Origin: Pseudobdellovibrionaceae bacterium | GTDB lineage: Bacteria; Bdellovibrionota; Bdellovibrionia; Bdellovibrionales; Bdellovibrionaceae | NCBI GenBank assembly: GCA_044359815.1 | Contig: JBIKLL010000020.1 | Location: forward strand, 1-38,251 | Length of the DNA stretch: 38,251 nucleotides | Direction: 5' to 3' | Shown here: positions 1 through 21,271 of the stretch, in pieces | Numbering within the stretch: the first letter of the stretch is position 1 | Layout of the letters: each line of letters starts with the position of its first letter | The notes under the pieces: model-generated | What the model saw: the letters and a program-made list of their open reading frames with translations, nothing else | What the model was told of the DNA's origin: nothing | Database searches by the model: none | Program-made: the position numbers and the translations under genes

Positions 1-43
1 AGTCATTTTATAAAAGCAATTTTTTTGCTTTTATAAAATGACT
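1..43. repeat. Perfect 19-bp AT-rich inverted repeat with 5-nt loop; possible terminator or protein-binding site
   Basis: AGTCATTTTATAAAAGCAA (1-19) and TTGCTTTTATAAAATGACT (25-43) are exact reverse complements. It lies downstream of the minus-strand gene ending at 137 and may extend beyond the window edge. Confidence 0.8.
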
Positions 44-136
44 CAACACCAGATATGCCCCGCACGCTCGCTGCATGTGTCTAAAAACAGTAAAAACAAA
101 TTATCTTTGAATTTATGCAATACGAGATATTTGCTG

Positions 137-1318
137 CTATTTTGTTCCGGGCGGTTTTGATTCGGGAGTGGCTGCGGTGGATGCAGCTGGCGTCGCAGAG
201 GATGGCGCTTCGACCGCAGGGCTGGTTGACTGACTGTCATCCAACATTGCGCTGCCTGCCACTAACAACCCTCCGATGGCAGCAGCTTGAATGGCCGCTG
301 AAACCACAACCCTGGCCCCACGTTTAATCATAAACTGACCAAAATTATCAAACTTCAGACGTTTCAGGTAGGCCTTCATTTCCTGAGCTGTATTCACATC
401 GTCTTTGACGGTCATAGATCTTTGTTTACCGTTAAGCATGGTTGAGTTTTCAAAATAGTCTTTAAAAAACGCCTGGTAACTTTCGCGTTCAGCGGCTGTT
501 ATTAAAATCTTAAACGGCATCACGGCTCCATCGATCTCCAGGGCCGCCAGTTCATTAAGATTTGTACCATAGGCTTTTTGAATCAAGGCCTCGGGACCAG
601 GTGTGATTTTTACCTTTTGTCCGTAGCTATCCAATAATTTGATTTCATCCAAAATAGCGTCCCTTTGGCCGTTTTGATTAATGGGCCGGTATTGCAACTG
701 CAATTTGAAATACTGCCCTGATCTGGTTTTAAAACCATAGGCCACCTGAACCTCAGTGCGATCCAAAATGTCCTTTTCAACAGCCGGACGGTTTAAGTTC
801 AATGTTCCTTTTATCAGCCAAAACACACTGCCCTCTGCAAACAAAGTTTTATCCACACTGACGATCATGGCCTCTGACTCTTCAGGAGCAGATTCATCTG
901 ATGGTTGTTTTTGCTTAGGTGCCTTATCGCTTTCGGCTTTTTGCTCAGCCTTATCGACCTGCTGATCAGCAGTTTTGTCAGCGCCTGATTTGACCGGCTC
1001 TGCTTGAGGTTTCTCAGATTCTGATTTGACGGATTCGGCCTGATTTTTTGCAACTTCTGGCTTGGGGACTTCAACTGCAGTCTCTGCCGCCTTTGATTTA
1101 TCAGACTCTTTGGCGGGTGAGTTTCCTTTGGGGTATTTTAAGGATCCAACAGTAAAGTTATCTTCATTTTTGGTTAATTTGATGGAACCTATGATTTCAA
1201 AAACTTTTGGCAAGGACCTTGAATTTTCAGAGGGAAAGACTCCCTCGCAAGAAGTTAAATCAGCCTGAACACATTGACCCCAAACAAACACGGCAAAGAT
1301 TATCAGTTTTGATTTCAT
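137..1318 (-). CDS. Secreted hypothetical protein with low-complexity K/E/Q/A linker and C-terminal hydrophobic segment
   Basis: ORF 137..1402. ATG 1318 (after AGGG) gives the signal peptide MKSKLIIFAVFVWGQCVQA, followed by DLTSCEGVF. Duplicated QAE-x-VKS units in the linker; hydrophobic VVVSAAIQAAAIGGLLVAG near the C-terminus. Confidence 0.75.
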   Translation of the reverse strand: MKSKLIIFAVFVWGQCVQADLTSCEGVFPSENSRSLPKVFEIIGSIKLTKNEDNFTVGSLKYPKGNSPAKESDKSKAAETAVEVPKPEVAKNQAESVKSESEKPQAEPVKSGADKTADQQVDKAEQKAESDKAPKQKQPSDESAPEESEAMIVSVDKTLFAEGSVFWLIKGTLNLNRPAVEKDILDRTEVQVAYGFKTRSGQYFKLQLQYRPINQNGQRDAILDEIKLLDSYGQKVKITPGPEALIQKAYGTNLNELAALEIDGAVMPFKILITAAERESYQAFFKDYFENSTMLNGKQRSMTVKDDVNTAQEMKAYLKRLKFDNFGQFMIKRGARVVVSAAIQAAAIGGLLVAGSAMLDDSQSTSPAVEAPSSATPAASTAATPESKPPGTK

Positions 1319-10509: not shown

Positions 10510-13500
10510 TTATTGTGGGCAGGAATAATCAATTGTCACCGTTCGACCGGTGGGCACAGGTGTCGCAAAGGTAATTGTGTCGCCGACAATTGTAAACCCA
10601 GTGGTTTTTACTGTGCCGTTTTCTTTGACTACCACATCAATGGTTGCGGCGTTTCCGTCAATATTCATAGGTATACAATTTAAGATAAATCTTTGTTTAG
10701 TTAACTCAGCTGTTCGCTGACTGATTGAGCCTAATTGAGATCCCCAATCAACAGCACAGACATCACCAGCAATTCCACCCGTCAGATTTACAATCTGAGT
10801 GTAATACTGCCCCGGTGTTTCATTGTGATTTTCAGGCGTTCCCGCACCGCAAGCATTTAAATCAGGATAAGGCACAATAATAGCATTAAATATAAATCCC
10901 TTGGTGTTTCCCAAAGTCTGTTTAATATTTGTAATTAATTTTTGCGGCCTTAGCGCTAAGGGCGAAGTGATCGCAGTTGTCGCATCTGGTGTCTCATCCG
11001 CATCAGAAACCACAATTATTGAAAACGCGGCGTCGCTTCTGAAAAACGTCAGCGCAGGATCATTAGCAGGATCCCAAATCGAAGCTTGCGCTAGCAATGA
11101 TTCTGTTTGACTGATATCAACTGACGCCTGATTCATATTCTGAACCAGAGTCGCCGTGCTGCCGCCAGCCCGGGCCCCGATATTTAAAGCCTCAGTGGTA
11201 AAACCAGAAGCAGGAACTCCATTGGTTGCCACAGCGTACTGCATTTGACTTAGTATTGTATTTATATAACTGACCATGGTTGGACTGATATCAACAGGGG
11301 ACATTGTTTTAGATCTCAAAAAATTTAAAATCGACAAAATTGAAGGAGCCCTATCATCAATAGCTCTGCAAGCCACATCAGCAGGATTAAAATAACCACT
11401 CATCGGCGTATAGAAATTATTAGTAGCCGTTTTAAAGGCAGCAACTCGGGTTTGCAATCGGGTAATTTTAGCTTTGAAAGAGGCTAAATCGGTAACCGCA
11501 GTGGCTACCTCTGCATCAAAAGCCTGAAGCGCAGAAATCATTGGACTAAAATAAGTAGAATGCAGCGATCTTATCGGAGCCACCATGGCTGCGCAATTAG
11601 TCCTATGAGTTTTAATTTGATTCACATAATTAGTCAGATTATCCAGATCTGACTGAAGCGCCTTATCATCTGAATCAGCTGATGAGATTGAAAGATTTCT
11701 GGCGTTTGAAATATATGTTGGCAGAAAAACATTCTGTATGTTTGGAGTGGCTGCCGCTAGCGTGACAGTATCTACTTCGTCCACTCGATTTCTAAAAGTA
11801 AAATCCGCATTTCTCATGACATTGTTAAGCTTGCCATCCAACAAGATCACTAACTCATCATGTTTATTGCGAATCTTACTGCCTTCATTCAGTCTATCTA
11901 TAGACCGAATAGATGCCAGCACGGCTTGTTCAGCTCCGCCACCTCTGGGCATGGTATCCAAGGCTAAATCAAATGCTGCTTGCCGATCATCTGGATTCAT
12001 AAGCGAATCTAAATAATAAGAATCTATTCCTGTACCACTGAAGCGCTCTAAAACACCTGTCATGTCTACGGTTCTGGCATCAGTGGTCGTCATCGCCAGA
12101 CGCCAGTCCAAGCCAGATAAATTTGAAAACAATGACGACAATCTGGCCTTTATGCTTTGACGTTCGTAATCCATGGATCCCGAATTATCGACGACTAATA
12201 AAATATCTAATTTATTATCGCCACCGATAATGGTTTTATTCATGGGTATACCAATATTGCTGACTCTCCAAATGTAGGATGAATTTGAAATATTACCCAG
12301 CAAATCACTGGCGCTGATAGAGTAGGTGTAATTACCCAAAAGCATAAATCCCAGATTTAATGCAGCTCCGCTGCTGCAAGAACCACTATTCACCAACACT
12401 GCGTCTCTTCTGAGCGTAAAATTACAGCTGGTCGGATTAGCGTACTGATCAACAACTGTTGGTTGGATCTGATAAGCAACTGCATTTGATGCAATTGCCG
12501 GAGGACTAACGGCATAGGAAATATTTGGGCCTGTTAAATCAACCCGCCAATTATAGGACTGAACCAAGGATTCATTACCGATATTATCAATGGCTTTAAA
12601 TTGTCCTGTGTACAGATTCTCACTGGCTGCGGCCATGACTACACCGGTAGTGCAAGATCTCCAAACTGTGTCACCAGGATTCTTGCATTCAAATCTGATA
12701 GCTCGCGGCCTGGCAGTGGTTGCTGATAAATTAAATACAACCTGGGGCTGTCTGGTCAACGTTGGTTGACCAACAACAGCTGTCACCATGACTTGGGCAG
12801 GAGTCACAGTCAAAATCGGCAGCGAAGAATCCTTTAGCCACTGATAAAAAATCACACCTGAACTGTTTGTAGCACCATCAATGGCTTCGACCTCAAATCG
12901 ATGACTGCCATCGGGGATTGAGCTGAAACTTGCACTCAATGATCTGCAATCAGTCCATGCAGAATTTAAGTTAACAATACGGCATCGCAAAGTCGCAATT
13001 CCACTGACGTCAGCTCCTACGACCAAGGTAAAATTGGCCACATTAGATCTAGTGTCCAAATCAGGTCGCAAACCTATGGCCACAGTTGGCGGTGTCACAT
13101 CCACGGTCCAATTATGAATAGCTGGGGCTGATCTGTTACCCACACTGTCGATACCAACAACCCTAAAACTCTTAGGACCTTCAGTAAAATTTAAACTCAC
13201 ACCAGAGCTGCAGACAAATTCAGTAGCCCCGCCATCGACACTGCATCTGAACTGTGTCAACGGAACACCTGAATCCACACCATCAAAAATAAAAGAAACT
13301 GTTGTTTGATTTGAAAAAGCCGCTGGCAATGGATTTCGCAGCGTCACAGTTGGCACATTCAAATCCACTGTCCAATTGTAAACTCCAACTGCTGATCGAT
13401 TAGTGGCTCTGTCCACAGAAACATAATTTAAAGTGTGCGCACTAGAGCTCAAACCACTAAAAGAGATATTCGCATTGCAAATAGCCCAAGCGGCTCCATC

Positions 13501-14382
13501 CAAAGAACATTCAAAATGTGAAATCCCAGACAAAGCATCTGATCCAGAAAAGGTAAAATTAATATTGGTCGCAGATGTGATGACAGGTTGATTTGAGCTG
13601 ACTGAAACCGTTGGCAAAACTCGATCCAATGTCCAGATGATGACTTCCTCGGTGCGATTACCAGCTTGATCCCAAGCCACAGCGCTAAAGCTTCTGGTCC
13701 CATCAATGGCATTGTCATCCCTAATATCACAATCTGGATAAATTGCCCCTACAGGTTTAACTCCGCTCAAACTTTGAATCAAAACACCATTGGAATTTCG
13801 ATCACAAAATTTTTCAGACATGTTAGGGTTTAAAAACATACGTTCTTTTAATCCCGAAACTTCATCCCTAGCATTGAATTTAAAATTCAAAGGGATTTGA
13901 TTAATAAAACCTGAGGGCCTGTTTTGATAAATTATTTCAGGAGCTATATCATCATGAACAATCGACGCTTGCACACAACCTGATTCGGCATTTGTTGCGC
14001 GAAAGTTTGCATACACAAATGCTTCTTGGTTTAACTGAGATAAATCCCAGGGTTTAGAGGGCGACACTGGCTGCCATTGACCACCCTGCAAACAATTGGG
14101 GTCATTGGTTAAATAGACTTCGCTGGCTTCTGGAGCAACAATTGATACGGATACTTTTGAAGAAGTCGTAAAATAATCCCCAGAATTAATCTGAATTCTG
14201 GCTGCAAATTGACCCATTGGTTGCTCGGTTGGTAAAACAACCTGACCAAACTGAACAGGGCTGCAATTCTGAAACATGAGGGTCGAACACAAGATCGAAA
14301 AAACAAAGTAGTGCTTGTTAGCTGACAGAAAGCCAAATATTTTACTTTTTAAATTGTAAAAATCTTTGACGGTCTTAAACAA
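10510..14382 (-). CDS. Large surface lipoprotein/adhesin with tandem Ig-like beta repeats and a VWA (MIDAS) domain interrupted by a helical insert
   Basis: LMFQNCS lipobox; repeated units ending D-x-x-x-N...W-x-(V/L)-D-x-x-x-P with paired Cys; DILLVVDNSGSM MIDAS motif and IIVVSDADE. GGGGG RBS before the TTG start. Confidence 0.85.
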   Translation of the reverse strand: MFKTVKDFYNLKSKIFGFLSANKHYFVFSILCSTLMFQNCSPVQFGQVVLPTEQPMGQFAARIQINSGDYFTTSSKVSVSIVAPEASEVYLTNDPNCLQGGQWQPVSPSKPWDLSQLNQEAFVYANFRATNAESGCVQASIVHDDIAPEIIYQNRPSGFINQIPLNFKFNARDEVSGLKERMFLNPNMSEKFCDRNSNGVLIQSLSGVKPVGAIYPDCDIRDDNAIDGTRSFSAVAWDQAGNRTEEVIIWTLDRVLPTVSVSSNQPVITSATNINFTFSGSDALSGISHFECSLDGAAWAICNANISFSGLSSSAHTLNYVSVDRATNRSAVGVYNWTVDLNVPTVTLRNPLPAAFSNQTTVSFIFDGVDSGVPLTQFRCSVDGGATEFVCSSGVSLNFTEGPKSFRVVGIDSVGNRSAPAIHNWTVDVTPPTVAIGLRPDLDTRSNVANFTLVVGADVSGIATLRCRIVNLNSAWTDCRSLSASFSSIPDGSHRFEVEAIDGATNSSGVIFYQWLKDSSLPILTVTPAQVMVTAVVGQPTLTRQPQVVFNLSATTARPRAIRFECKNPGDTVWRSCTTGVVMAAASENLYTGQFKAIDNIGNESLVQSYNWRVDLTGPNISYAVSPPAIASNAVAYQIQPTVVDQYANPTSCNFTLRRDAVLVNSGSCSSGAALNLGFMLLGNYTYSISASDLLGNISNSSYIWRVSNIGIPMNKTIIGGDNKLDILLVVDNSGSMDYERQSIKARLSSLFSNLSGLDWRLAMTTTDARTVDMTGVLERFSGTGIDSYYLDSLMNPDDRQAAFDLALDTMPRGGGAEQAVLASIRSIDRLNEGSKIRNKHDELVILLDGKLNNVMRNADFTFRNRVDEVDTVTLAAATPNIQNVFLPTYISNARNLSISSADSDDKALQSDLDNLTNYVNQIKTHRTNCAAMVAPIRSLHSTYFSPMISALQAFDAEVATAVTDLASFKAKITRLQTRVAAFKTATNNFYTPMSGYFNPADVACRAIDDRAPSILSILNFLRSKTMSPVDISPTMVSYINTILSQMQYAVATNGVPASGFTTEALNIGARAGGSTATLVQNMNQASVDISQTESLLAQASIWDPANDPALTFFRSDAAFSIIVVSDADETPDATTAITSPLALRPQKLITNIKQTLGNTKGFIFNAIIVPYPDLNACGAGTPENHNETPGQYYTQIVNLTGGIAGDVCAVDWGSQLGSISQRTAELTKQRFILNCIPMNIDGNAATIDVVVKENGTVKTTGFTIVGDTITFATPVPTGRTVTIDYSCPQ

Positions 14383-14530: not shown

Positions 14531-15163
14531 TTAAATAAATTCTGAAAGCTGTGAAAGTGTTTTGCGAAGGATTTTTTCGTAATCCGAGACTTCGGTCACA
14601 ACTAATCTTGCGTGCTTTTTCGAGGGCTCGACAAACTGATCATGCATGGGCTTTACCTGATTGTTAAATTGTGCTTCCACCCCTGCTTGAGTCCTTCCCC
14701 GTTCTTCGATATCCCGCCTAAGCCGTCTCTCAAACCGTAAATCTTCAGGGGTATCAAAAAATATTGTGTCGTCTAAAAGCCTTCTGACCTGACCTGCATG
14801 CAAAATCAAAATCCCATCGACGATGATGATGGATTTTGGTTTCACAGTCGTGGTTTCCCCTGATCTCTTATGAGTGGCAAAATCATACATTGGCAATTCG
14901 GCCTTGCTACCATTTTTTAATTTTTCCAAAACTTCTGACAATAATTTAAAATCGATACTGGATGGGTGATCAAAATTAACTGAACCACCGTCACGATCAA
15001 ATTTTTCGCTTTGATCAATATAAAAACTGTCTTGAAATATTATTTCGCAATTTTGTCTGCCTAAATTTTCTTGAATGGCTCTGGCAAAATAGGTTTTACC
15101 ACTGCCGCTGCCTCCAGCGACCCCTAATACATAACAACTATTTCGTTTGGTAGAGTCTGTCAC
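14531..15163 (-). CDS. udk: Uridine kinase
   Basis: GVAGGSGSGKT Walker A, QDSFY, NFDHP, YDFATH and RRLRRDIEERGR. GTG start overlaps the upp end by 26 nt. Confidence 0.95.
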   Translation of the reverse strand: MTDSTKRNSCYVLGVAGGSGSGKTYFARAIQENLGRQNCEIIFQDSFYIDQSEKFDRDGGSVNFDHPSSIDFKLLSEVLEKLKNGSKAELPMYDFATHKRSGETTTVKPKSIIIVDGILILHAGQVRRLLDDTIFFDTPEDLRFERRLRRDIEERGRTQAGVEAQFNNQVKPMHDQFVEPSKKHARLVVTEVSDYEKILRKTLSQLSEFI

Positions 15164-15785
15164 CAGCGTCCCCTAGACCCGGCACTAAATACCCCAGATC
15201 GTTAATTTCAGATTCGACATTCAATGTGTAAATTTCTACATCAGGATGAAACTTTGTGATTTTCTTGACAGCAAATTCACTGATTAAAACTGACAATATT
15301 TTTATTTTATCTACTTCGTAACTCTTAAGCCTGTCGATGGCTGCCAACATTGTGTCCGCAGTTGAGACCAAGGGATCACACAAAATCGCTAAACGGCCTT
15401 TTATATCAACCGGCATTTTAAAATAGTACTCAACCGTGTTGTGGATAAATTTGTCGCGGTAAATCCCAATAAACCCAGCGGATGCAAAGGGCACAATTGA
15501 TAAAACAGAATCTAACATGGCATTCCCAGCACGCAACACAGACACCACAACTGGTGGATTAATAATTCTTTCGATTTTTGCTTTGGCGATGGGAGTATCG
15601 ACAGAAACTTTGTCCATGTCCTTCCAGTCCCTCATAGACTCATAGGCAAGCAGCGAACTGATTTCTTGAACCAGCCTTCGAAACTCTGCAGAGTTTGTGT
15701 TTTTATCCCGCAAGTATCCTAATTTATGTTTTAACAGCGGATGCTCAACAATTTTTAGGTTTGCTGTTTTGCCATTTGCCTTCAT
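15138..15785 (-). CDS. upp: Uracil phosphoribosyltransferase (URC6-equivalent)
   Basis: HPLLKHKL...LRDKNT, VLRAG, PRPP loop CDPLVST and YLVPGLGDAGDRLY. Confidence 0.96.
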   Translation of the reverse strand: MKANGKTANLKIVEHPLLKHKLGYLRDKNTNSAEFRRLVQEISSLLAYESMRDWKDMDKVSVDTPIAKAKIERIINPPVVVSVLRAGNAMLDSVLSIVPFASAGFIGIYRDKFIHNTVEYYFKMPVDIKGRLAILCDPLVSTADTMLAAIDRLKSYEVDKIKILSVLISEFAVKKITKFHPDVEIYTLNVESEINDLGYLVPGLGDAGDRLYQTK

Positions 15786-15806
15786 TTTAATCCTCTTTGT
15801 AAATTT

Positions 15807-16988
15807 CTAAAACACCGTGGCGTCGCTTTTGATTCTGATCGGGGGATCGCCGCCAGTTCTTTTTTCTTGAGCTAATCTTCGACCCGCCCACCATGTTCCG
15901 CCCTCAAGCACTTTTGCCAGCGGAAAGTCTTTGGCACTTTTGTTTAATTTTTGTTGAACTAATTCTGCAATCACATCCAGATAATGGATAGTCAGTGCAC
16001 GCCATTCGATTATTAGTTCTGAATCAGGTGCCCATTCAGTAGCGGCATCTTTAGAGTTTTTAAAATTCAAAATTCCCGTATCAATCAACAGCCCGCCATT
16101 TCGGTATTCAGCCAGTCCCGTTAACTCCTCAACCCCTTCGACCCGAAAGCCAGCTTCAACAATGGGTTCAATCAGCGAATAAGTCATCCACTGCGACAGT
16201 TTATGAAAGGCCACCAGCTGCCCCTTATATTTCCAAACATCCCCCAGGTTCACGCCGTTTAATTTTTCCCGGCCAGGCCAAATGGGACCAAAACCATCCA
16301 GCACGGCTCGCAAAATGGCTTTTGCCTGAATGTTTTTGCCGTATCGTTCAAACAGATAATCAATAATATTTCCCGGGCGTCCGTCCTTGAAAAATTCTTT
16401 CCTTTCAACCGCACGACTTAGATTATTTAATAAATCCAATCTGCCTTGGACTCCGACCAATGGATTAGTTTTGGTAACTTGAAAATATTTTTCAATGTCG
16501 GCCTTTGACAGATTTCTGAGTCCATCAACATCGGCCTGATTGGATTGTCTATCCCGACTGAGAGTGCCATTTAAAAATAAATACAAACTGGCCAAGGCCA
16601 AACCTTCGCTGCGCGAATATTTAGTTTGGCTGGAGTCTTCAAAATAAAACCAATCCTTACCAGCTCCCGCATCCAACAACACTGACGTGATTACCAAATC
16701 CAGTTTGCAGCGAGCTCTTTCCATGGGTTCTTTGTGTCTGAAAGCATCATTGACCTTAGAAATCCTGTCAATTTTGCCAACCTGAAAATGCCCCCACCTG
16801 GAATGAAAGGGAATATTGTGATCTGGATAGTTTTTATTAATTGTTTCAATCACCAGCTCAACTGTTGAACCCAGTTTTGATTCATCCAAAACAAAATGAG
16901 TCTCAGATTTTTGGCTGAGATCATAAATCCATTGGGCACTATGCCTGATGGCCTCTGGTGAAAATAAAAAATCTAAATCATTCTTCAA
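15807..16988 (-). CDS. URC4/Urg3 family protein (DUF1688), uracil catabolism
   Basis: IPFHSRWGHF, SVLLDAGAG, RSEGLALAS, FHKLSQWMTYSL, TGLAEYRNGGL, EWRALT and VLEGGTW motifs characteristic of DUF1688. Confidence 0.93.
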   Translation of the reverse strand: MKNDLDFLFSPEAIRHSAQWIYDLSQKSETHFVLDESKLGSTVELVIETINKNYPDHNIPFHSRWGHFQVGKIDRISKVNDAFRHKEPMERARCKLDLVITSVLLDAGAGKDWFYFEDSSQTKYSRSEGLALASLYLFLNGTLSRDRQSNQADVDGLRNLSKADIEKYFQVTKTNPLVGVQGRLDLLNNLSRAVERKEFFKDGRPGNIIDYLFERYGKNIQAKAILRAVLDGFGPIWPGREKLNGVNLGDVWKYKGQLVAFHKLSQWMTYSLIEPIVEAGFRVEGVEELTGLAEYRNGGLLIDTGILNFKNSKDAATEWAPDSELIIEWRALTIHYLDVIAELVQQKLNKSAKDFPLAKVLEGGTWWAGRRLAQEKRTGGDPPIRIKSDATVF

Positions 16989-18240
16989 TATGTCTTCCTT
17001 TGACCTTCTTCAGGTCTTCCTTATTTTTTTTAGGTCCCTTGTTAAAATACCCGGCGGCTTTTTTTGCTTCCATTTCAACCTGAGCATCCTGAGGTATCAA
17101 TTCCTCGGGAATCGATATTCTGTTAACAACCTGAATGCCCGAATTTATAATGGCATCGTATTTCATATTGCTCATTGAATGCAGATTGTGAATTTTTGAA
17201 ATCCCCAGATAATGTAAACAATCTGGCATCAGCTCTTGAAACCTGGCGTCTTCAACTCCGGCTACGCATTCTGTGCGGTAAAAATAAGTTGCAGCTGTAT
17301 CCCCGCCCTTTTGTCGCTTTCGGGCGTTGTAAACCAAAAATTTTGTGACCTCACCTAGCGCCCTGCCCTCTTTGCGAAAGTAGGCAATGATTCCGACTCC
17401 TCCCCGTTGTGCGGTTCTGGCTGCGTCTTCAATCCCGTACATTAAATAAGGTCTGCATGTGCAGATATCACTGCCAAACACATCCGAGCCATTACACTCG
17501 TCATGGACCCTGCAGGTTAGTTCGATTTTTGGGTTGGACAAATTTTTAGGCTCGCCAAAAATATAAATCGATATATGTCCGATCGGCGGCAAGCAAACTT
17601 TTAAATCAGGTCTTGTGATAAGTTCTGGCAGCAATCCCGCAGTTTCTTGAAACAAAATCCTGCGCAAATCGCCCTCTTCGATTTTTAATCGCTTAGCAAT
17701 CCCTGGTAAATACCATACGGGTTCGATAGCAAGTTTTGTGACCTTGATGTCTTTGTTTTCGCGAACCACTTTACCGTCTACTTTTAACCGTCCCTTGGCA
17801 ATGGCCTCTGCAATTTCAGGGATGGTTAAATGAGCTTGGGTCACCGCAATCGAGGGTCTGATGTCATAGCCCTTATCAAAAAATTCTTTAAAATGATTTT
17901 TTGGATCCAGTCCCCAAGGATCCAGTGACACAATTTGATCACTATCAAACCATTGTTTAAAAGGCCCAATACTGACGGGGCTTTCTGTGTTTTGTAAATC
18001 AGGTTTGTGTTGCGGGGAAAATTTTCCGCTGGCAATCGATAGGGCACGGTAAATGGCATAACTGCCCCCATGGGTTCCGATGGCATTTCGATTTTTGAAA
18101 TCCGTTAGTGAGGCCACCACAGGCCCACGTTCTTTAGCCGTTTTTGCTCCCCATTTTATAGGCAAAGTATTTTTAAATTTTAAATTTGCATGTGACGCCA
18201 ATATCACGTGACTTGATCTGTGATTAATATCCAGTTTCAT
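16978..18240 (-). CDS. URC1/Urg1-type GTP cyclohydrolase II-like protein with N-terminal GTP_CH_N domain
   Basis: N-terminal WGA...RGPVVAS...RNAIGTHGGSY; Zn motif RVHDECNGSDVFGSDICTC; RKEGRALGEVTKFLVYNARK; SMSNMKY. Overlaps the URC4 start by 11 nt. Confidence 0.93.
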   Translation of the reverse strand: MKLDINHRSSHVILASHANLKFKNTLPIKWGAKTAKERGPVVASLTDFKNRNAIGTHGGSYAIYRALSIASGKFSPQHKPDLQNTESPVSIGPFKQWFDSDQIVSLDPWGLDPKNHFKEFFDKGYDIRPSIAVTQAHLTIPEIAEAIAKGRLKVDGKVVRENKDIKVTKLAIEPVWYLPGIAKRLKIEEGDLRRILFQETAGLLPELITRPDLKVCLPPIGHISIYIFGEPKNLSNPKIELTCRVHDECNGSDVFGSDICTCRPYLMYGIEDAARTAQRGGVGIIAYFRKEGRALGEVTKFLVYNARKRQKGGDTAATYFYRTECVAGVEDARFQELMPDCLHYLGISKIHNLHSMSNMKYDAIINSGIQVVNRISIPEELIPQDAQVEMEAKKAAGYFNKGPKKNKEDLKKVKGRHIEE

Positions 18241-18244
18241 AAGG

Positions 18245-19651
18245 CTATCCCATCCAAGTTGAATTGGCCTGGGCCTCCCATTTTGTTGTGATCTTTTTTA
18301 CATCCGTCCAAAAATCCAATGAATGAACTCCGGTGATATCCCCATGACCAAATTTTGATAAATTAATTCCACCAAATGAAAAGGGCTCTCTCGGAACTGG
18401 AACCCCAACGTTGATCCCGACCATCCCCACACGGGCTTGGCGAACGACCCGTTCAGCCAAAGATCCTGAGCTGGTAAAAACACTACAGGCATTTCCGTAA
18501 GGATTTGAATTTTCAATTTCAATGGCCTCGGTTAAATCTTTGCACCTGATGATGGACAATATGGGTCCAAATAATTCTGCAGTAGCGGCTTCAGATCCAG
18601 GTTTTACGTTATCCAAAACAGTGGGGCCCAACCAATTGCCACCATCCAGTCCTGTCGGTGGTTTAGCTTTGCGACCATCGAGCAATACTTTAACTCCTGA
18701 TTTTTCGGCACGATCAATTGCCTGGTGCAAAAATTCAACCTGAGATTTAGTAATAATAGCGCCCATGGTTTTACCCAACTCCAGACTGGCTGCGCGTTTA
18801 ATGATTTTATCAATGTGTTCTTGCACGTCACCCACTGCCAGCAAAACACTGGCAGCCATGCATCGTTGGCCTGCACATCCCGTAAATGAATCAGAAATCC
18901 CTGGCCCACTTAAATCCAAATGAGCATCTGGCAGCAGCACAATGTGGTTTTTAGCTCCGCCTAATGCCAGCACTCTTTTGCCAAGGGCAGTTCCTCTTTG
19001 ATAAACCAATTTTGCAATTTTGGATGAGCCCACAAAGCCAATGGCTTTCACCACCGGATGATCGATAATTGCATTCACTGTTTCTGATTCACCCTGAAGA
19101 ACTGTAAATACACCATCCGGGATTCCTGCTTCCTTCAATAGGGCTTCAATTTTCAAACTGGTCAGCGGAGTTTTTTCAGAAGGCTTCCAGACATAGGAAT
19201 TTCCTAAAACCAAAGCTATCGGTATGGTCCACATGGGAACCATGGCCGGAAAATTAAAAGGACTGATAAAGGCCACAACTCCTAAAGGCTCCCTGCGGTA
19301 TTCGCAAAAAACACCACGAGAAACTTCAAGCTTTCCGCCTAAATCCAAGTTTTGTATGGATAATGCGTACTCCAGGACCTCTATCCCCTTCAACAATCCC
19401 GCCTGAGCTTCTGAATAAACTTTACCGCATTCTGAAGCTTTCAGTTTTGTGATTTCATCCAAGTCTCGCAGCAATAAATTTCTGAATTGATATAAAACTT
19501 TGCTGCGCTCTTTAAGCGTTTGTTGGCCCCAGGCAATTTGCGCCTGTGAAGCCTTGACCAATGCCTGCTGGATTTGATCGGCACTGGGATATTGAATTTT
19601 TCCTATGACTTTTCCGGTATGCGGAGAAAAGACTTCTTTGATCTGAGTCAC
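18245..19651 (-). CDS. mmsA: CoA-acylating (methyl)malonate-semialdehyde dehydrogenase (MmsA/IolA family)
   Basis: PFNFPAMVPMW, KPSEKTP, FVGSS, GGAKNH, GCAGQRCMA (catalytic Cys), ELFGP and GMVGINVGVPVP; GTG start. Confidence 0.9.
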   Translation of the reverse strand: MTQIKEVFSPHTGKVIGKIQYPSADQIQQALVKASQAQIAWGQQTLKERSKVLYQFRNLLLRDLDEITKLKASECGKVYSEAQAGLLKGIEVLEYALSIQNLDLGGKLEVSRGVFCEYRREPLGVVAFISPFNFPAMVPMWTIPIALVLGNSYVWKPSEKTPLTSLKIEALLKEAGIPDGVFTVLQGESETVNAIIDHPVVKAIGFVGSSKIAKLVYQRGTALGKRVLALGGAKNHIVLLPDAHLDLSGPGISDSFTGCAGQRCMAASVLLAVGDVQEHIDKIIKRAASLELGKTMGAIITKSQVEFLHQAIDRAEKSGVKVLLDGRKAKPPTGLDGGNWLGPTVLDNVKPGSEAATAELFGPILSIIRCKDLTEAIEIENSNPYGNACSVFTSSGSLAERVVRQARVGMVGINVGVPVPREPFSFGGINLSKFGHGDITGVHSLDFWTDVKKITTKWEAQANSTWMG

Positions 19652-19653
19652 GA

Positions 19654-20049
19654 CTAAGACCTGTCCTTTCCCCCTTTGCCACCCTTACCACCTTTGCCGC
19701 CTTTACCTCGACCACCCTTGTGGTTTTTCTTGTCGGCTTGTTCAAATGTGGTTGCAGTGGTTTGCACAAACTCAGGTAAAAAATGAATGTTTTCTACCGT
19801 CACAGCTTTTGCTGGGGGAGCTTCGCCTTCATTCAACCCGATAACTAGAATTCGCTTTAACTGTGTGGCATTTTGTGCCGCCACATCTAAGGCTTTCATA
19901 AAATAATTAAGTTTTTCACCTTCGAATTTAAAATCAGTTCCGATGGCCGTTTGGATTTCCTCTGCGGATTTTCCTTCGGCTGCCAAAGCTTCTTTTGATT
20001 TAAGACCCTTTGATAAAGTAAAACTGGCAAATTCTGTAATGGACTTCAT
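19654..20049 (-). CDS. Hypothetical protein with basic Gly/Lys tail; first gene of the URC operon
   Basis: AGGGGG RBS; C-terminus KGGRGKGGKGGKGGKGGKDRS; stop 2 nt before the mmsA start. Confidence 0.8.
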   Translation of the reverse strand: MKSITEFASFTLSKGLKSKEALAAEGKSAEEIQTAIGTDFKFEGEKLNYFMKALDVAAQNATQLKRILVIGLNEGEAPPAKAVTVENIHFLPEFVQTTATTFEQADKKNHKGGRGKGGKGGKGGKGGKDRS

Positions 20050-20076: not shown

Positions 20077-20105
20077 ATCATCATCAAAATCACCAAATGG
20101 GTCAA
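20077..20105 (-). promoter_or_regulatory. Sigma70-type promoter of the URC operon
   Basis: TTGACC-N17-GATGAT, ending 27 nt upstream of ATG 20049. Confidence 0.55.
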
Positions 20106-20156: not shown

Positions 20157-20988
20157 TTAGCTGGCTTTAGATTGCACAGCTGGCGAATCGGCAGGCGCAA
20201 AGCTTTGACTCGAAGCTCTAGCAAAGGCTTGTTGGTATTTCGAAGGCAACATCCCTTGAACAAAAGACCCTTCTAAAACACCAGGAAACAACTCTTCATA
20301 GGACTTAACTTTTTCCAGCGAAACCCTTCTAAATACAGAACTTCTGCTGACCATATGGGCATTATCAAACCCACAGGCGCCTAATAATTCTGCAAAGGCG
20401 TGGACTGTTTGCTTGTGAAAACTTGCGACCCTGTGCTTTTTATCCGTCGGATCAAGCCCCACCATCAATTGGGCATCACTGGTAGCCACACCCGTCGGGC
20501 AGTGATTGGTGTTGCATTTTCTGGCCTGGATACACACTGGCCGAATAAGGTTTTTTGCAATCAGGCCCACCGATTTTGACTCTTAATGATTCAGGATTCA
20601 CATGTTTCGGTGATAATGAATGCCCAATTCATTCGTAGCCTTCGGCATAGACATTCTTTTGAGTTCCAAATGGCAATGTATCGATTTGTTTTTTGGCTCG
20701 TTGATACACGACTGATCTGAGCTCTCGCGAAATGGGTGTGCCATTAACGTCGTCTTCAACAAAATATTGCTGGATTTCGGGACGCACACCTTCAAAGGCA
20801 TAGCGAACCATTCCTAGGATTGGAAAGTTTCGCAGTATGGCTCGCTTTTTTTAAAAAGCATTGTGCATTCCCACCAGCACAATGGGGCCTGTCAAAATGA
20901 AGGCAAATAAAGTATTTGGATAAAAAAATCCAAGCACCGCCTGAAAACTGATCACTACAAATGAAATTTTAAAAAATAAGCTTCTCAA
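20157..20988 (-). pseudogene. FMN-binding glutamate synthase family (YerD-like) pseudogene
   Basis: One frame from TTG 20988 reads ...MHNAF*KKRAILRNFPILG...RPEIQQYF...YQRAK...PFGT...EGYE*IGHS...IGGPDCKKPYSAS, with stops at 20851-3 and 20629-31. At ~20535 it jumps in another frame to CIQARKCNTNHCPTGVAT; the central FMN barrel is missing. Confidence 0.92.
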
Positions 20989-21271
20989 AGTTTTTGGTCC
21001 TCGAGAATTCTTTTCGGTAATTTGTGGTGGAATCCTTAGCTGGACTTTGTGCTGAGCCAGACAGAATCCGTTTAACACAATTCTCAGACAGGACTGATCA
21101 AGAAATTTGTCAGCTAAATGTGCAAAGCTCAGATTTTTTTGAGTCAGTGGGTCATAGGCAGAATTTCTGCATCTGATCAGCTTTACTTATTTGTGTCGGT
21201 GATTCTTTCACCCTTTTGGATTTGTTTTTGCCCTTTGGAGCCAAGTTTGATTAATGAATCTCACACACAAA

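Follow-up and report, generated by a model that had tools for sequence, protein, structure and literature searches.

The Rut and reductive (Pyd) pathways and the URC pathway all have uracil as their substrate; the first two, however, attack the free base, by unrelated enzymes, and malonate semialdehyde is the three-carbon intermediate of the Rut pathway. The URC pathway, described in Lachancea (Saccharomyces) kluyveri, with urg1-urg3 as its counterpart in S. pombe, breaks uracil down at the nucleotide level into urea and a three-carbon unit (Andersen et al. 2008, J Mol Biol 380:656, as related in passages of PMC3869809 and PMC7530994). In the yeast, according to the same passages, the three-carbon unit is reduced to 3-hydroxypropionate, and urea amidolyase cleaves the urea, by which nitrogen is gained. 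A conserved organization of the URC1, URC4 and UPRTase genes has already been reported for bacteria (passages of PMC3869809 and PMC7530994), and bacterial UrcA is the subject, as 'UTP cyclohydrolase', of a 2021 paper (Zhang HB, Wei YF et al., ACS Catal 2021;11:8895-901). The core URC pathway is already known, and the operon described here, from the Pseudobdellovibrionaceae genome of a predatory, Bdellovibrio-like bacterium, appears to be an extended version of it.

The operon lies in a window of 38,251 nucleotides, the whole stretch of DNA that was analysed. Six co-oriented ORFs, separated by 2, 4, -11, 21 and -26 nt, occupy the minus strand (Table 1), and both coordinates and gaps given by the first-pass annotation were reproduced. 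The conserved unit, however, consists of five genes—ALDH, URC1, URC4, upp and udk—with the upstream 131-aa gene outside, so that only the five-gene part of the six-gene operon initially proposed holds. The URC1, URC4 and URC6/UPRTase core is common to this operon and L. kluyveri; a CoA-acylating ALDH is linked here instead of a route to 3-hydroxypropionate, udk is an addition, and the URC2-type regulator of the yeast is absent from the operon. We put at about 0.75 the probability that this five-gene operon encodes an extended URC route working at the nucleotide level, which probably yields acetyl-CoA and ribose phosphate, with urea as a waste product. The comparative and structural evidence agrees with a URC-type uracil catabolic operon with an oxidative exit, as was originally suggested.

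Table 1. Features of the locus, in window coordinates.
Feature	Coordinates	Strand	Basis
131-aa hypothetical gene	19654..20049	-	Pfam/NCBIfam: no match
mmsA-like ALDH, 468 aa, N-terminally short	18245..19651	-	PF00171, TIGR01722
URC1/UrcA homologue, two-domain GTP-cyclohydrolase-II-like	16978..18240	-	PF12471 + PF00925, NF005536
URC4/DUF1688, predicted (phospho)ribosylurea N-glycosidase, Qng1 fold	15807..16988	-	PF07958, PF10343, AF2 model
upp, uracil phosphoribosyltransferase, URC6 equivalent	15138..15785	-	PF14681, NF001097, TIGR01091
udk, uridine(/cytidine) kinase	14531..15163	-	PF00485, NF004018
Promoter-like hexamers TTGACC-17-GATGAT, 5' of 131-aa gene	20077..20105	-	9/12 consensus match; weak

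In 39 Bdellovibrionota loci, hand-chosen from 157 other DUF1688-positive genomes and spanning 13 families, the order URC1-URC4-upp was found without exception, with udk immediately 3' of upp in 37 and the ALDH immediately 5' of the trio in 31. The five-gene operon is widespread in Bdellovibrionota, the Pseudobdellovibrionaceae locus being one copy of it, and the survey of DUF1688 neighbourhoods, proposed earlier as a check, revealed mmsA and udk linkage conserved across the phylum. The ALDH was not adjacent in the other 8 loci, and an MMSDH-family gene was present elsewhere in all five such genomes checked. Tallies over named genomes, which count only loci whose flank sufficed for judging, gave linkage of the ALDH in 25/26 and of udk in 26/31 Bdellovibrionota, 7/9 and 1/9 Myxococcota-labelled genomes, 0/17 and 0/15 Cyanobacteriota, and 0/6 and 0/8 Pseudomonadota, respectively. 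ALDH linkage requires at least three changes on the URC1 tree and so did not have a single clean origin.

The operon ALDH matched PF00171 with 415 bits and TIGR01722 (MMSDH) with 450.6 bits, only 2 bits above the cut-off of 448.5, and is the only one of the genome's six ALDHs to exceed it. It resembles MmsA/IolA/ALDH6A1 in that its ten best PDB matches are, without exception, MMSDH/MSDH and in the GAKNH and AGQRCMA stretches common to it and human ALDH6A1; the Arg-Cys active-site motif is present in the URC-associated ALDH, and the hydrolytic Glu is absent. It differs from that family in its score (~450 versus ~780 bits), its short N-terminus and its position in a separate, long-stemmed clade: in a 43-row tree all the URC-linked ALDHs, together with three relocated ones, formed one clade (SH-aLRT 100, stem 0.9), and the canonical 780-bit MMSDHs of Bdellovibrionota fell outside it. 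In this tree the URC-associated ALDH is thus a dedicated clade, sister to MmsA. Family membership and gene linkage suggest that it would convert malonate semialdehyde, NAD+ and CoA to acetyl-CoA, CO2 and NADH; this acetyl-CoA exit, like the role of URC4 discussed below, is a prediction. As the only ALDH above the MMSDH cut-off, the enzyme might serve other pathways too; that it is just an ordinary MmsA of valine, beta-alanine or inositol catabolism, next to the cluster by chance, with the URC exit elsewhere (for example to 3-hydroxypropionate), is nevertheless very improbable, given its adjacency in 31/39 phylum loci and 7/9 Myxococcota-labelled loci and the separation of the linked ALDHs from canonical MMSDHs. 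The proposal of MmsA as the exit to acetyl-CoA therefore keeps its footing in linkage and family membership, with a distinct clade taking the place of canonical MmsA, whereas no support was found for methylmalonate semialdehyde arising from thymine. Some Bdellovibrionota carry a canonical 780-bit MMSDH besides the URC-linked ALDH.

The 131-aa gene had been counted as a member of the pathway operon, which its absence from the loci of relatives contradicts. Its product, with a Gly/Lys-rich tail, matched nothing in Pfam and NCBIfam profile searches, and an atlas look-up returned no function; it has 118 homologues, every named one from Bdellovibrionota, and by this distribution is a real family specific to that phylum. 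The gene was absent from 39/39 phylum URC loci (tblastn), and its product found no counterpart among 118 ORFs upstream of 64 mmsA-bearing loci (phmmer). In 37/60 genomes of the same family it is present but apart from the URC cluster: the two are separated by 1.2 Mb in G244 and by 384 kb in G156, whereas G340, G064 and G298 have them on different contigs. These comparisons indicate that it is an accidental neighbour, adjoining the operon only in this lineage, where, to judge by the 2-nt gap, it is probably co-transcribed with it. The junction between mmsA and the 131-aa gene is not an assembly artefact, because it is spanned, with 0 differences, by contigs of three further metagenome runs from lake water. 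A rearrangement has brought the unrelated gene directly 5' of the ALDH gene and deleted the first 16-20 ALDH codons, and the operon is now probably transcribed from the promoter of the 131-aa gene. The sigma70-like promoter put forward in the first-pass annotation was not borne out: the region contains 12 matches of 9/12 against 14.1 +/- 3.6 in shuffles, and the TTGACC-17-GATGAT match, of a kind no more frequent than chance, is weak. The upstream region also contains what is left of a Glu_synthase-domain gene, covering no more than profile positions 301-368, which points to local decay.

The rearrangement bears on the exit step, and the ALDH may be impaired in this genome. At 468 aa, as opposed to 482-538 aa in relatives at least 54% identical, it is ~16-20 residues short and without the conserved N-terminal 'NFI.G.W' strand, and its frame stays open merely 11 codons further upstream. 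Loss of this strand, beside a decaying neighbour, could have left the enzyme unstable or inactive, its substrate being handled otherwise or not at all. We consider such damage unlikely: the 468 codons are intact, with 75% identity to the nearest relative, and the lineage persists, its junction unchanged in the three further metagenome runs.

URC1 combines GTP_CH_N (PF12471, 273.4 bits) and GTP_cyclohydro2 (PF00925, 51.2 bits) domains and scored 719.1 bits with NF005536 (cut-off 403). Over residues 10-419 it aligned, with 560 bits, to PDB 7ej3/7eev, an enzyme of the same two-domain build from another organism, which we take to be UrcA, the UTP cyclohydrolase. Close similarity to a solved enzyme cited as 'UTP cyclohydrolase' suggests that URC1 would open the uracil ring hydrolytically and remove C4-C5-C6. 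The products would presumably be the three-carbon aldehyde malonate semialdehyde and urea still attached to ribose phosphate. The chemistry of URC1 and URC4 had been called unsettled; for URC1 it is less open than that, going by the 2021 citation and the matching PDB entries. NF005536 bears the name 'GTP cyclohydrolase II' in NCBIfam, as do the PDB entries, which would fit a riboflavin-pathway enzyme in a cluster unrelated to pyrimidine breakdown. We regard this as scarcely credible: RibA models, whose cut-offs are 148-206 bits, gave URC1 no more than 48-56; its linkage with DUF1688 and upp has no exception; and its solved homologue is cited as a UTP cyclohydrolase. Moreover, a separate RibBA-like GTP cyclohydrolase II is encoded on contig C96 (114 bits, 413-aa frame), making URC1 dispensable for riboflavin and disfavouring the possibility, listed earlier as a potential refutation, of a GTP/riboflavin enzyme.

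URC4 matched PF07958 with 459.6 bits and barely cleared the cut-off of Pfam Q_salvage (PF10343, 27.8 versus 25 bits); a sequence search of the PDB gave no match. Its AF2 model (pLDDT 93.8), however, retrieved only proteins of Qng1/DUF2419, the queuosine-5'-monophosphate N-glycosylase family, among the top 10 Foldseek matches (best E 1.9e-9) and superposed on 7uk3 over 311 residues (VIA-align Z 27.8, rmsd 2.8 A), compared with Z <= 11.2 for DNA glycosylases. The whole fold is common to both (311/319 residues): model residues 6..393 map to 5..323 of the 7uk3 chain, and the C-termini coincide. In Qng1 the invariant terminal Tyr323 contributes its C-terminal carboxylate to the active site (passages of PMC9881137). 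URC4 likewise ends in a strictly conserved aromatic residue—SDG[TSM][VL]F in 119/119 homologues, the last residue always Phe. It differs from Qng1 in being ~70 residues longer, with 15-18% identity, and in substrate, which is queuosine monophosphate for Qng1 and would be ribosylurea (phosphate) for URC4. The Qng1-like fold and the invariant C-terminal Phe suggest that URC4 is a (phospho)ribosylurea N-glycosidase, predicted to hydrolyse the N-glycosidic bond and release urea and ribose 5-phosphate. Rather than URC1 and URC4 opening the ring jointly, as first proposed, URC4 would more likely act after URC1 has opened it.

Two genes would feed the route: upp (PF14681 194 bits; NF001097 224 bits; TIGR01091 212.8 bits, cut-off 208.35), converting uracil and PRPP to UMP, and udk (PF00485 135.2 bits; NF004018 227.9 bits, cut-off 180), converting uridine and ATP to UMP, which housekeeping kinases encoded outside the operon would presumably raise to UTP. 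Family assignments and the conserved order in the phylum uphold both as entries converging on UMP. Another PRK-family match lies on contig C77, and the operon upp is the genome's sole full-length UPRTase match, so that upp and udk also serve salvage. One could accordingly read the operon as mainly concerned with pyrimidine salvage and pool control, with ordinary upp and udk and with URC1-URC4-ALDH as an overflow valve for surplus UTP when prey RNA floods a predator with pyrimidines, any energy yield being incidental. The single upp would fit, as would the unused urea (see below) and the cost of reaching UTP, by our estimate about three phosphoryl transfers, or PRPP, before any gain. We find this emphasis unlikely, because a dedicated clade of CoA-acylating ALDH accompanies the cluster in two phyla, as would be expected were the carbon recovered and not simply detoxified; the difference from the energy-yielding route is in any case one of emphasis, the chemistry being identical. 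An energy-yielding variant suited to a predator had been envisaged, and of this the link to predation is drawn from two lineages only.

In yeast URC, urea amidolyase gains nitrogen (passages of PMC3869809 and PMC7530994), whereas neither urea carboxylase nor urease was found in this genome. Across the phylum, 0 of 401 genomes, this one included, had a urea carboxylase above cut-off, and a convincing urease alpha subunit occurred in just one, itself DUF1688-negative. With urea carboxylase absent and urease nearly so in this sample, urea is probably excreted, in which case the extended URC route would yield carbon, reducing power and ribose phosphate, but not nitrogen. Urease was present in 5/5 ALDH-linked Myxococcota, which indicates that the ALDH link is independent of the missing use of urea.

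The first-pass annotation had proposed a URC-type pyrimidine catabolic operon, and this reading is right in its essentials, the operon being both real and conserved. The six minus-strand ORFs were recovered with the same coordinates and spacings (2, 4, -11, 21 and -26 nt), and five of the six gene identities are backed by Pfam and NCBIfam; the protein of the first ORF (131 aa) matches no family in either. The source genome, in which the window is an entire contig, comprises 2.95 Mb in 125 contigs and is 91% complete. Trees place the window among genomes of its own family, close to Bdellovibrio bacteriovorus strain Bd16, and several lake-water metagenome runs contain near-identical DNA. The DUF1688 protein (URC4) has all of its top homologues in Bdellovibrionota (Bdellovibrio, Bacteriovorax, Peredibacter and MAGs), close relatives carry the NCBI name 'URC4/urg3 family protein', and DUF1688 is by far a better Pfam model for it than Q_salvage.

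Features of the operon and its surroundings, with family scores
Feature	Coordinates	Strand	Family matches and remarks
Upstream region	20157-21078	minus	Glu_synthase-domain (FMN-type) remnant in a 137-aa ORF
Proposed sigma70-like promoter	20105-20077		9/12 match
131-aa ORF	19654-20049	minus	
ALDH ('mmsA')	18245-19651	minus	TIGR01722, 450.6 bits, cut-off 448.5 (marginal pass)
URC1	16978-18240	minus	PF12471 (GTP_CH_N), 273.4 bits; PF00925 (GTP_cyclohydro2), 51.2 bits; NF005536, 719.1 bits
URC4	15807-16988	minus	PF07958 (DUF1688), 459.6 bits; PF10343 (Q_salvage), 27.8 bits, cut-off 25 (marginal)
upp	15138-15785	minus	21 nt downstream of URC4; equivalent of URC6 (uracil phosphoribosyltransferase)
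udk	14531-15163	minus	NF004018, 227.9 bits, cut-off 180; TIGR00235, 204.3 bits, under its cut-off of 220.3
Terminator-like hairpin and T-run	14180-14201	minus	330 nt past the udk stop
1290-aa ORF	10510-14382	minus	TTG start; OmpL47-type beta-barrel domain matches

According to an excerpt of PMC3869809, the description of the URC pathway, and of how bacteria arrange the genes for URC1, URC4 and UPRTase, dates from 2008. The window operon is a variant of this known pathway and not a new kind of system: homologues of all three genes of the yeast core (URC1, URC4 and URC6/UPRTase) are present, and the link to upp is kept in every one of the 39 loci compared within the phylum. What we add here are phylum-wide counts, a separate ALDH clade, an invariant URC4 C-terminus, the phylum-wide lack of urea-degrading enzymes and a rearrangement specific to the window. 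A literature search, which lay outside the primary URC papers and is no proof of absence, returned no ALDH- or udk-extended bacterial URC operon and no activity for DUF1688; 'Bdellovibrio' was absent among the matches listed.

DUF1688 was found in 158 of the 401 sampled Bdellovibrionota genomes. From the 157 positive genomes besides the window's own we hand-picked 39, spanning 13 families, and compared their 20-kb regions. URC1, URC4 and upp are adjacent and co-oriented in 39/39 of these loci, the ALDH gene lies directly upstream of URC1 in 31/39 (54-75% identity to the window ALDH), and udk lies directly downstream of upp in 37/39. The 131-aa gene, proposed earlier as an operon member, occurs in 0/39 and is not one. 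Cultivable Bdellovibrio bacteriovorus has the same operon. A wider URC4 scan, with one genome per species, kept the best 80 of 594 relatives, and only loci with flanks long enough to judge were counted. Among these best 80, ALDH and udk accompany the core in 25/26 and 26/31 Bdellovibrionota-labelled loci, in 7/9 and 1/9 Myxococcota-labelled loci (Vitiosangium, Cystobacter, Archangium, Corallococcus, Myxococcus and MAGs), in 0/17 and 0/15 loci of Cyanobacteriota and in 0/6 and 0/8 of Pseudomonadota. This makes the three-gene core general, whereas two lineages share the ALDH extension and the udk extension is nearly exclusive to Bdellovibrionota. Both lineages that share the ALDH extension, Bdellovibrionota and Myxococcota, are largely predatory. 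The first-pass annotation had suggested comparing mmsA and udk with reductases in DUF1688 neighbourhoods. Both mmsA and udk recur in the phylum; among 96 ORFs next to the core at 15 non-Bdellovibrionota loci, Pfam revealed no reductase, urease or urea carboxylase that recurred. Other genes follow upp at single loci, namely a PnrA/Bmp-type nucleoside ABC transporter in Azospirillum (locus L148, 10442-14706) and an AAA_28 (NadR-like kinase) gene in a Myxococcales MAG (locus L151, 10870-11445).

Yeast releases the C3 unit of the URC pathway as 3-hydroxypropionate by means of a reductase (URC8), whereas in the window operon a CoA-acylating ALDH is linked instead. This ALDH is the sole one of the six in the genome to score over the cut-off for the (methyl)malonate-semialdehyde dehydrogenase (MMSDH) family, and methylmalonate/malonate-semialdehyde dehydrogenases make up all ten of its best PDB matches. 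When aligned, the window ALDH and human ALDH6A1 both have AGQRCMA (Arg-Cys) and GAKNH, and both carry Ala in place of the general-base Glu of the 'ELGGK' segment. AGQRCMA, with Arg before the catalytic Cys, and GAKNH without the general-base Glu are a combination that we take to mark the CoA-dependent, decarboxylating subfamily. Canonical MMSDHs of the phylum score ~780 bits on TIGR01722, versus 450.6 for the window ALDH. Each of the five Bdellovibrionota genomes checked among those without an adjacent ALDH has a gene of the MMSDH family at another place; two of the five genes are canonical (~780 bits), and three, regarded as relocated, are of the 443-458-bit type. In a maximum-likelihood tree of 43 rows, one clade (SH-aLRT 100, stem 0.9) unites the three relocated genes with all URC-linked ALDHs (27 from Bdellovibrionota, 5 from Myxococcota and that of Fluviispira), while canonical MMSDHs and a cyanobacterial ALDH placed after upp fall outside it. 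That such a dedicated clade exists is the strongest argument for the ALDH working with the URC genes. Since a dedicated clade of CoA-acylating dehydrogenases travels with these genes, the C3 product of the URC pathway is predicted to be malonate semialdehyde, which is a testable statement. The further proposal of the first-pass annotation, methylmalonate semialdehyde from thymine, found no support in these data.

ALDH linkage does not form a single clean clade on the URC1 tree (62 rows), where the starred branches force at least three changes and where Myxococcota URC1 sits with non-Bdellovibrionota sequences. The number of changes indicates that the ALDH link was gained, lost or transferred more than once. 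At one locus of a Bdellovibrionota-labelled MAG (L121), both ALDH and URC1 group with the side of Myxococcota and other phyla, and udk is missing; the Myxococcota loci set beside it are L102, L104, L109, L110 and L134. This pattern hints either at inter-lineage transfer of a four-gene module or at a mis-binned contig.

Residues 10-419 of URC1 align to residues 15-422 of PDB entries 7EJ3/7EEV (560 bits, E 2.8e-167), which we take to be the bacterial UTP cyclohydrolase UrcA. By this likeness the URC1 of the window would hydrolyse UTP, to products that are putative. Structural work on the bacterial URC1 enzyme exists, and the bacterial UTP cyclohydrolase is the subject of a paper by Zhang HB, Wei YF et al. 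(ACS Catal 2021;11:8895-901), listed under ref. 14 in an excerpt of PMC12507026. Riboflavin synthesis does not need URC1, since a separate RibBA-like GTP cyclohydrolase II is encoded on another contig of the genome (C96).

At sequence level, neither the single URC4 protein nor a 32-sequence profile had a meaningful match in the PDB, and its link to Qng1 comes from fold comparison only. An AlphaFold2 model of URC4, built from a 32-sequence alignment covering four phyla, was confident (pLDDT 93.8, pTM 0.92). In Foldseek, Qng1/DUF2419 entries took the first ten places among the PDB matches of this model (best E 1.9e-9), and DNA glycosylases came next with E > 0.06. VIA-align against wild-type Qng1 (7UK3) gave Z 27.8 and an rmsd of 2.8 A over 311/319 residues, versus Z <=11.2 for the next fold class. 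Residues 6..393 of the model fall on residues 5..323 of the Qng1 chain, so the C-termini of the two proteins coincide. The motif SDG[TSM][VL]F followed by the stop is the C-terminus of 119/119 URC4 homologues, at all loci, and both proteins thus end in a conserved aromatic residue (Tyr in Qng1, Phe in URC4). K263 and E294-Y295 are invariant in URC4 and lie 31 residues apart, and the spacing from K199 to D231-Y232 in Qng1, which include its catalytic Lys and Asp, is 32 residues; from the spacing we infer that the former may be counterparts of the latter.

According to an excerpt of PMC9881137, Qng1 hydrolyses the N-glycosidic bond of queuosine-5'-monophosphate, with the Asp of the HhH motif (D231) as the likely nucleophile, and its active site includes the carboxylate of the invariant C-terminal Tyr, for which reason C-terminal tags inactivate the enzyme. 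The Qng1 fold, together with the invariant C-terminus, points to URC4 being an N-ribosyl hydrolase, predicted to convert ribosylurea (5'-phosphate) to urea and ribose (5-phosphate). In the yeast literature, summarized in an excerpt of PMC7530994, URC4 is set at the step 'ribosylurea to urea', and the Qng1 fold would give this step a mechanism, as well as a practical caution on tagging URC4.

Urea released in the yeast pathway is used by urea amidolyase (URC3,5), whereas no such enzyme was found in the window genome. There (91% completeness) we found no urease alpha, and the best match to the urea carboxylase model TIGR02712 reached 557.5 bits versus a cut-off of 1303.85, covering the biotin carboxylase part only. 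Across the phylum, 0/401 genomes exceeded the urea carboxylase cut-off, with all matches again confined to the biotin carboxylase part; urease alpha was convincing in 1/401 genomes, itself without DUF1688, and four more matches were partial (21-25 bits). Outside the phylum, urease is present in 3/5 cyanobacterial or proteobacterial URC genomes. A tie between the ALDH link and the absence of urease was considered and is ruled out by the ALDH-linked Myxococcota, 5/5 of which have urease. Lacking urea-degrading enzymes, the Bdellovibrionota route cannot scavenge nitrogen through urea; what it would recover is carbon (acetyl-CoA), NADH and ribose phosphate.

On a bolder reading, URC4 may be a Qng1-like 5-phosphoribosylurea N-ribohydrolase whose own C-terminal carboxylate is catalytic; with UrcA and the dedicated malonate-semialdehyde dehydrogenase clade it would give predatory bacteria all the steps that lead from UTP to urea, ribose 5-phosphate and acetyl-CoA. 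These predators would discard the ring nitrogen because they are limited for carbon and energy and not for nitrogen. We put the probability of this joint reading at about one half. Of the four known ways to degrade pyrimidines, URC is to our knowledge understood least, and the value of the operon lies in the functions it assigns to URC4 and to the C3 exit, which can be tested. Whether URC4 is a Qng1-type N-glycosidase can be tested in an assay that leaves its C-terminus free. Equally testable is the proposal that Bdellovibrio-like predators recover carbon and ribose phosphate from prey RNA and discard urea, which matters for how nutrients are budgeted in bacterial predation.

The upp gene of the operon is the sole full UPRTase match in the genome, so that Upp serves both salvage and catabolism; Udk probably also acts in salvage besides catabolism, and the UMP/UTP pool is the branch point between the two. 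A second PRK/uridine-kinase-family match (112.5 bits) lies on contig C77 of the same genome (9665-10189), inside a 675-aa open frame encoding a fused or multidomain uridine-kinase-like protein.

The start of the operon is peculiar to the window. The 131-aa ORF, which stops 2 nt ahead of the ALDH gene, belongs to a family restricted to Bdellovibrionota (118 homologues of roughly 140-160 aa, without a known domain) that has a Gly/Lys-rich C-terminal tail (KGGKGGKGG...), matches in 37/60 same-family genomes, and neighbours that vary between genomes. Relatives carry the gene remote from their URC cluster, at 1.2 Mb (genome G244), at 384 kb (G156) or on other contigs (G340, G064 and G298). The protein atlas holds only automatic names for the 131-aa protein, which probably reflect its tail, and a poor model (pLDDT 0.57). 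The window ALDH starts ~16-20 residues later than its 18 aligned relatives and is missing 'NFI.G.W', its profile match begins at position 15-17, and its frame is open for just 11 further codons upstream. The Glu_synthase remnant upstream of the 131-aa ORF covers only positions 301-368 of the 369 in the profile, and no family matches the short ORFs on its upstream side; it looks like a decayed gene beside a rearranged operon start. Contigs from other metagenome runs span both junction and remnant with 0 differences, and since these are independent, the rearrangement is real and lineage-specific.

The sigma70-like promoter proposed for the operon does not stand out from its background, as the region has 12 matches of this quality and shuffled sequences have 14.1 +/- 3.6. 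Rfam gave zero matches at gathering scores across the whole window. The genes flanking the operon are unrelated to it (the adhesin-like 1290-aa ORF, MsrBA, proteases and hypotheticals). The hairpin downstream of udk may be the end of the operon; it falls within the longest-ORF call of the next gene, the start of which may be over-extended. The 1290-aa product of that ORF is surface-protein-like and has a partial match to the Bdellovibrio MIDAS adhesin model (83 bits, far under the cut-off of 700).
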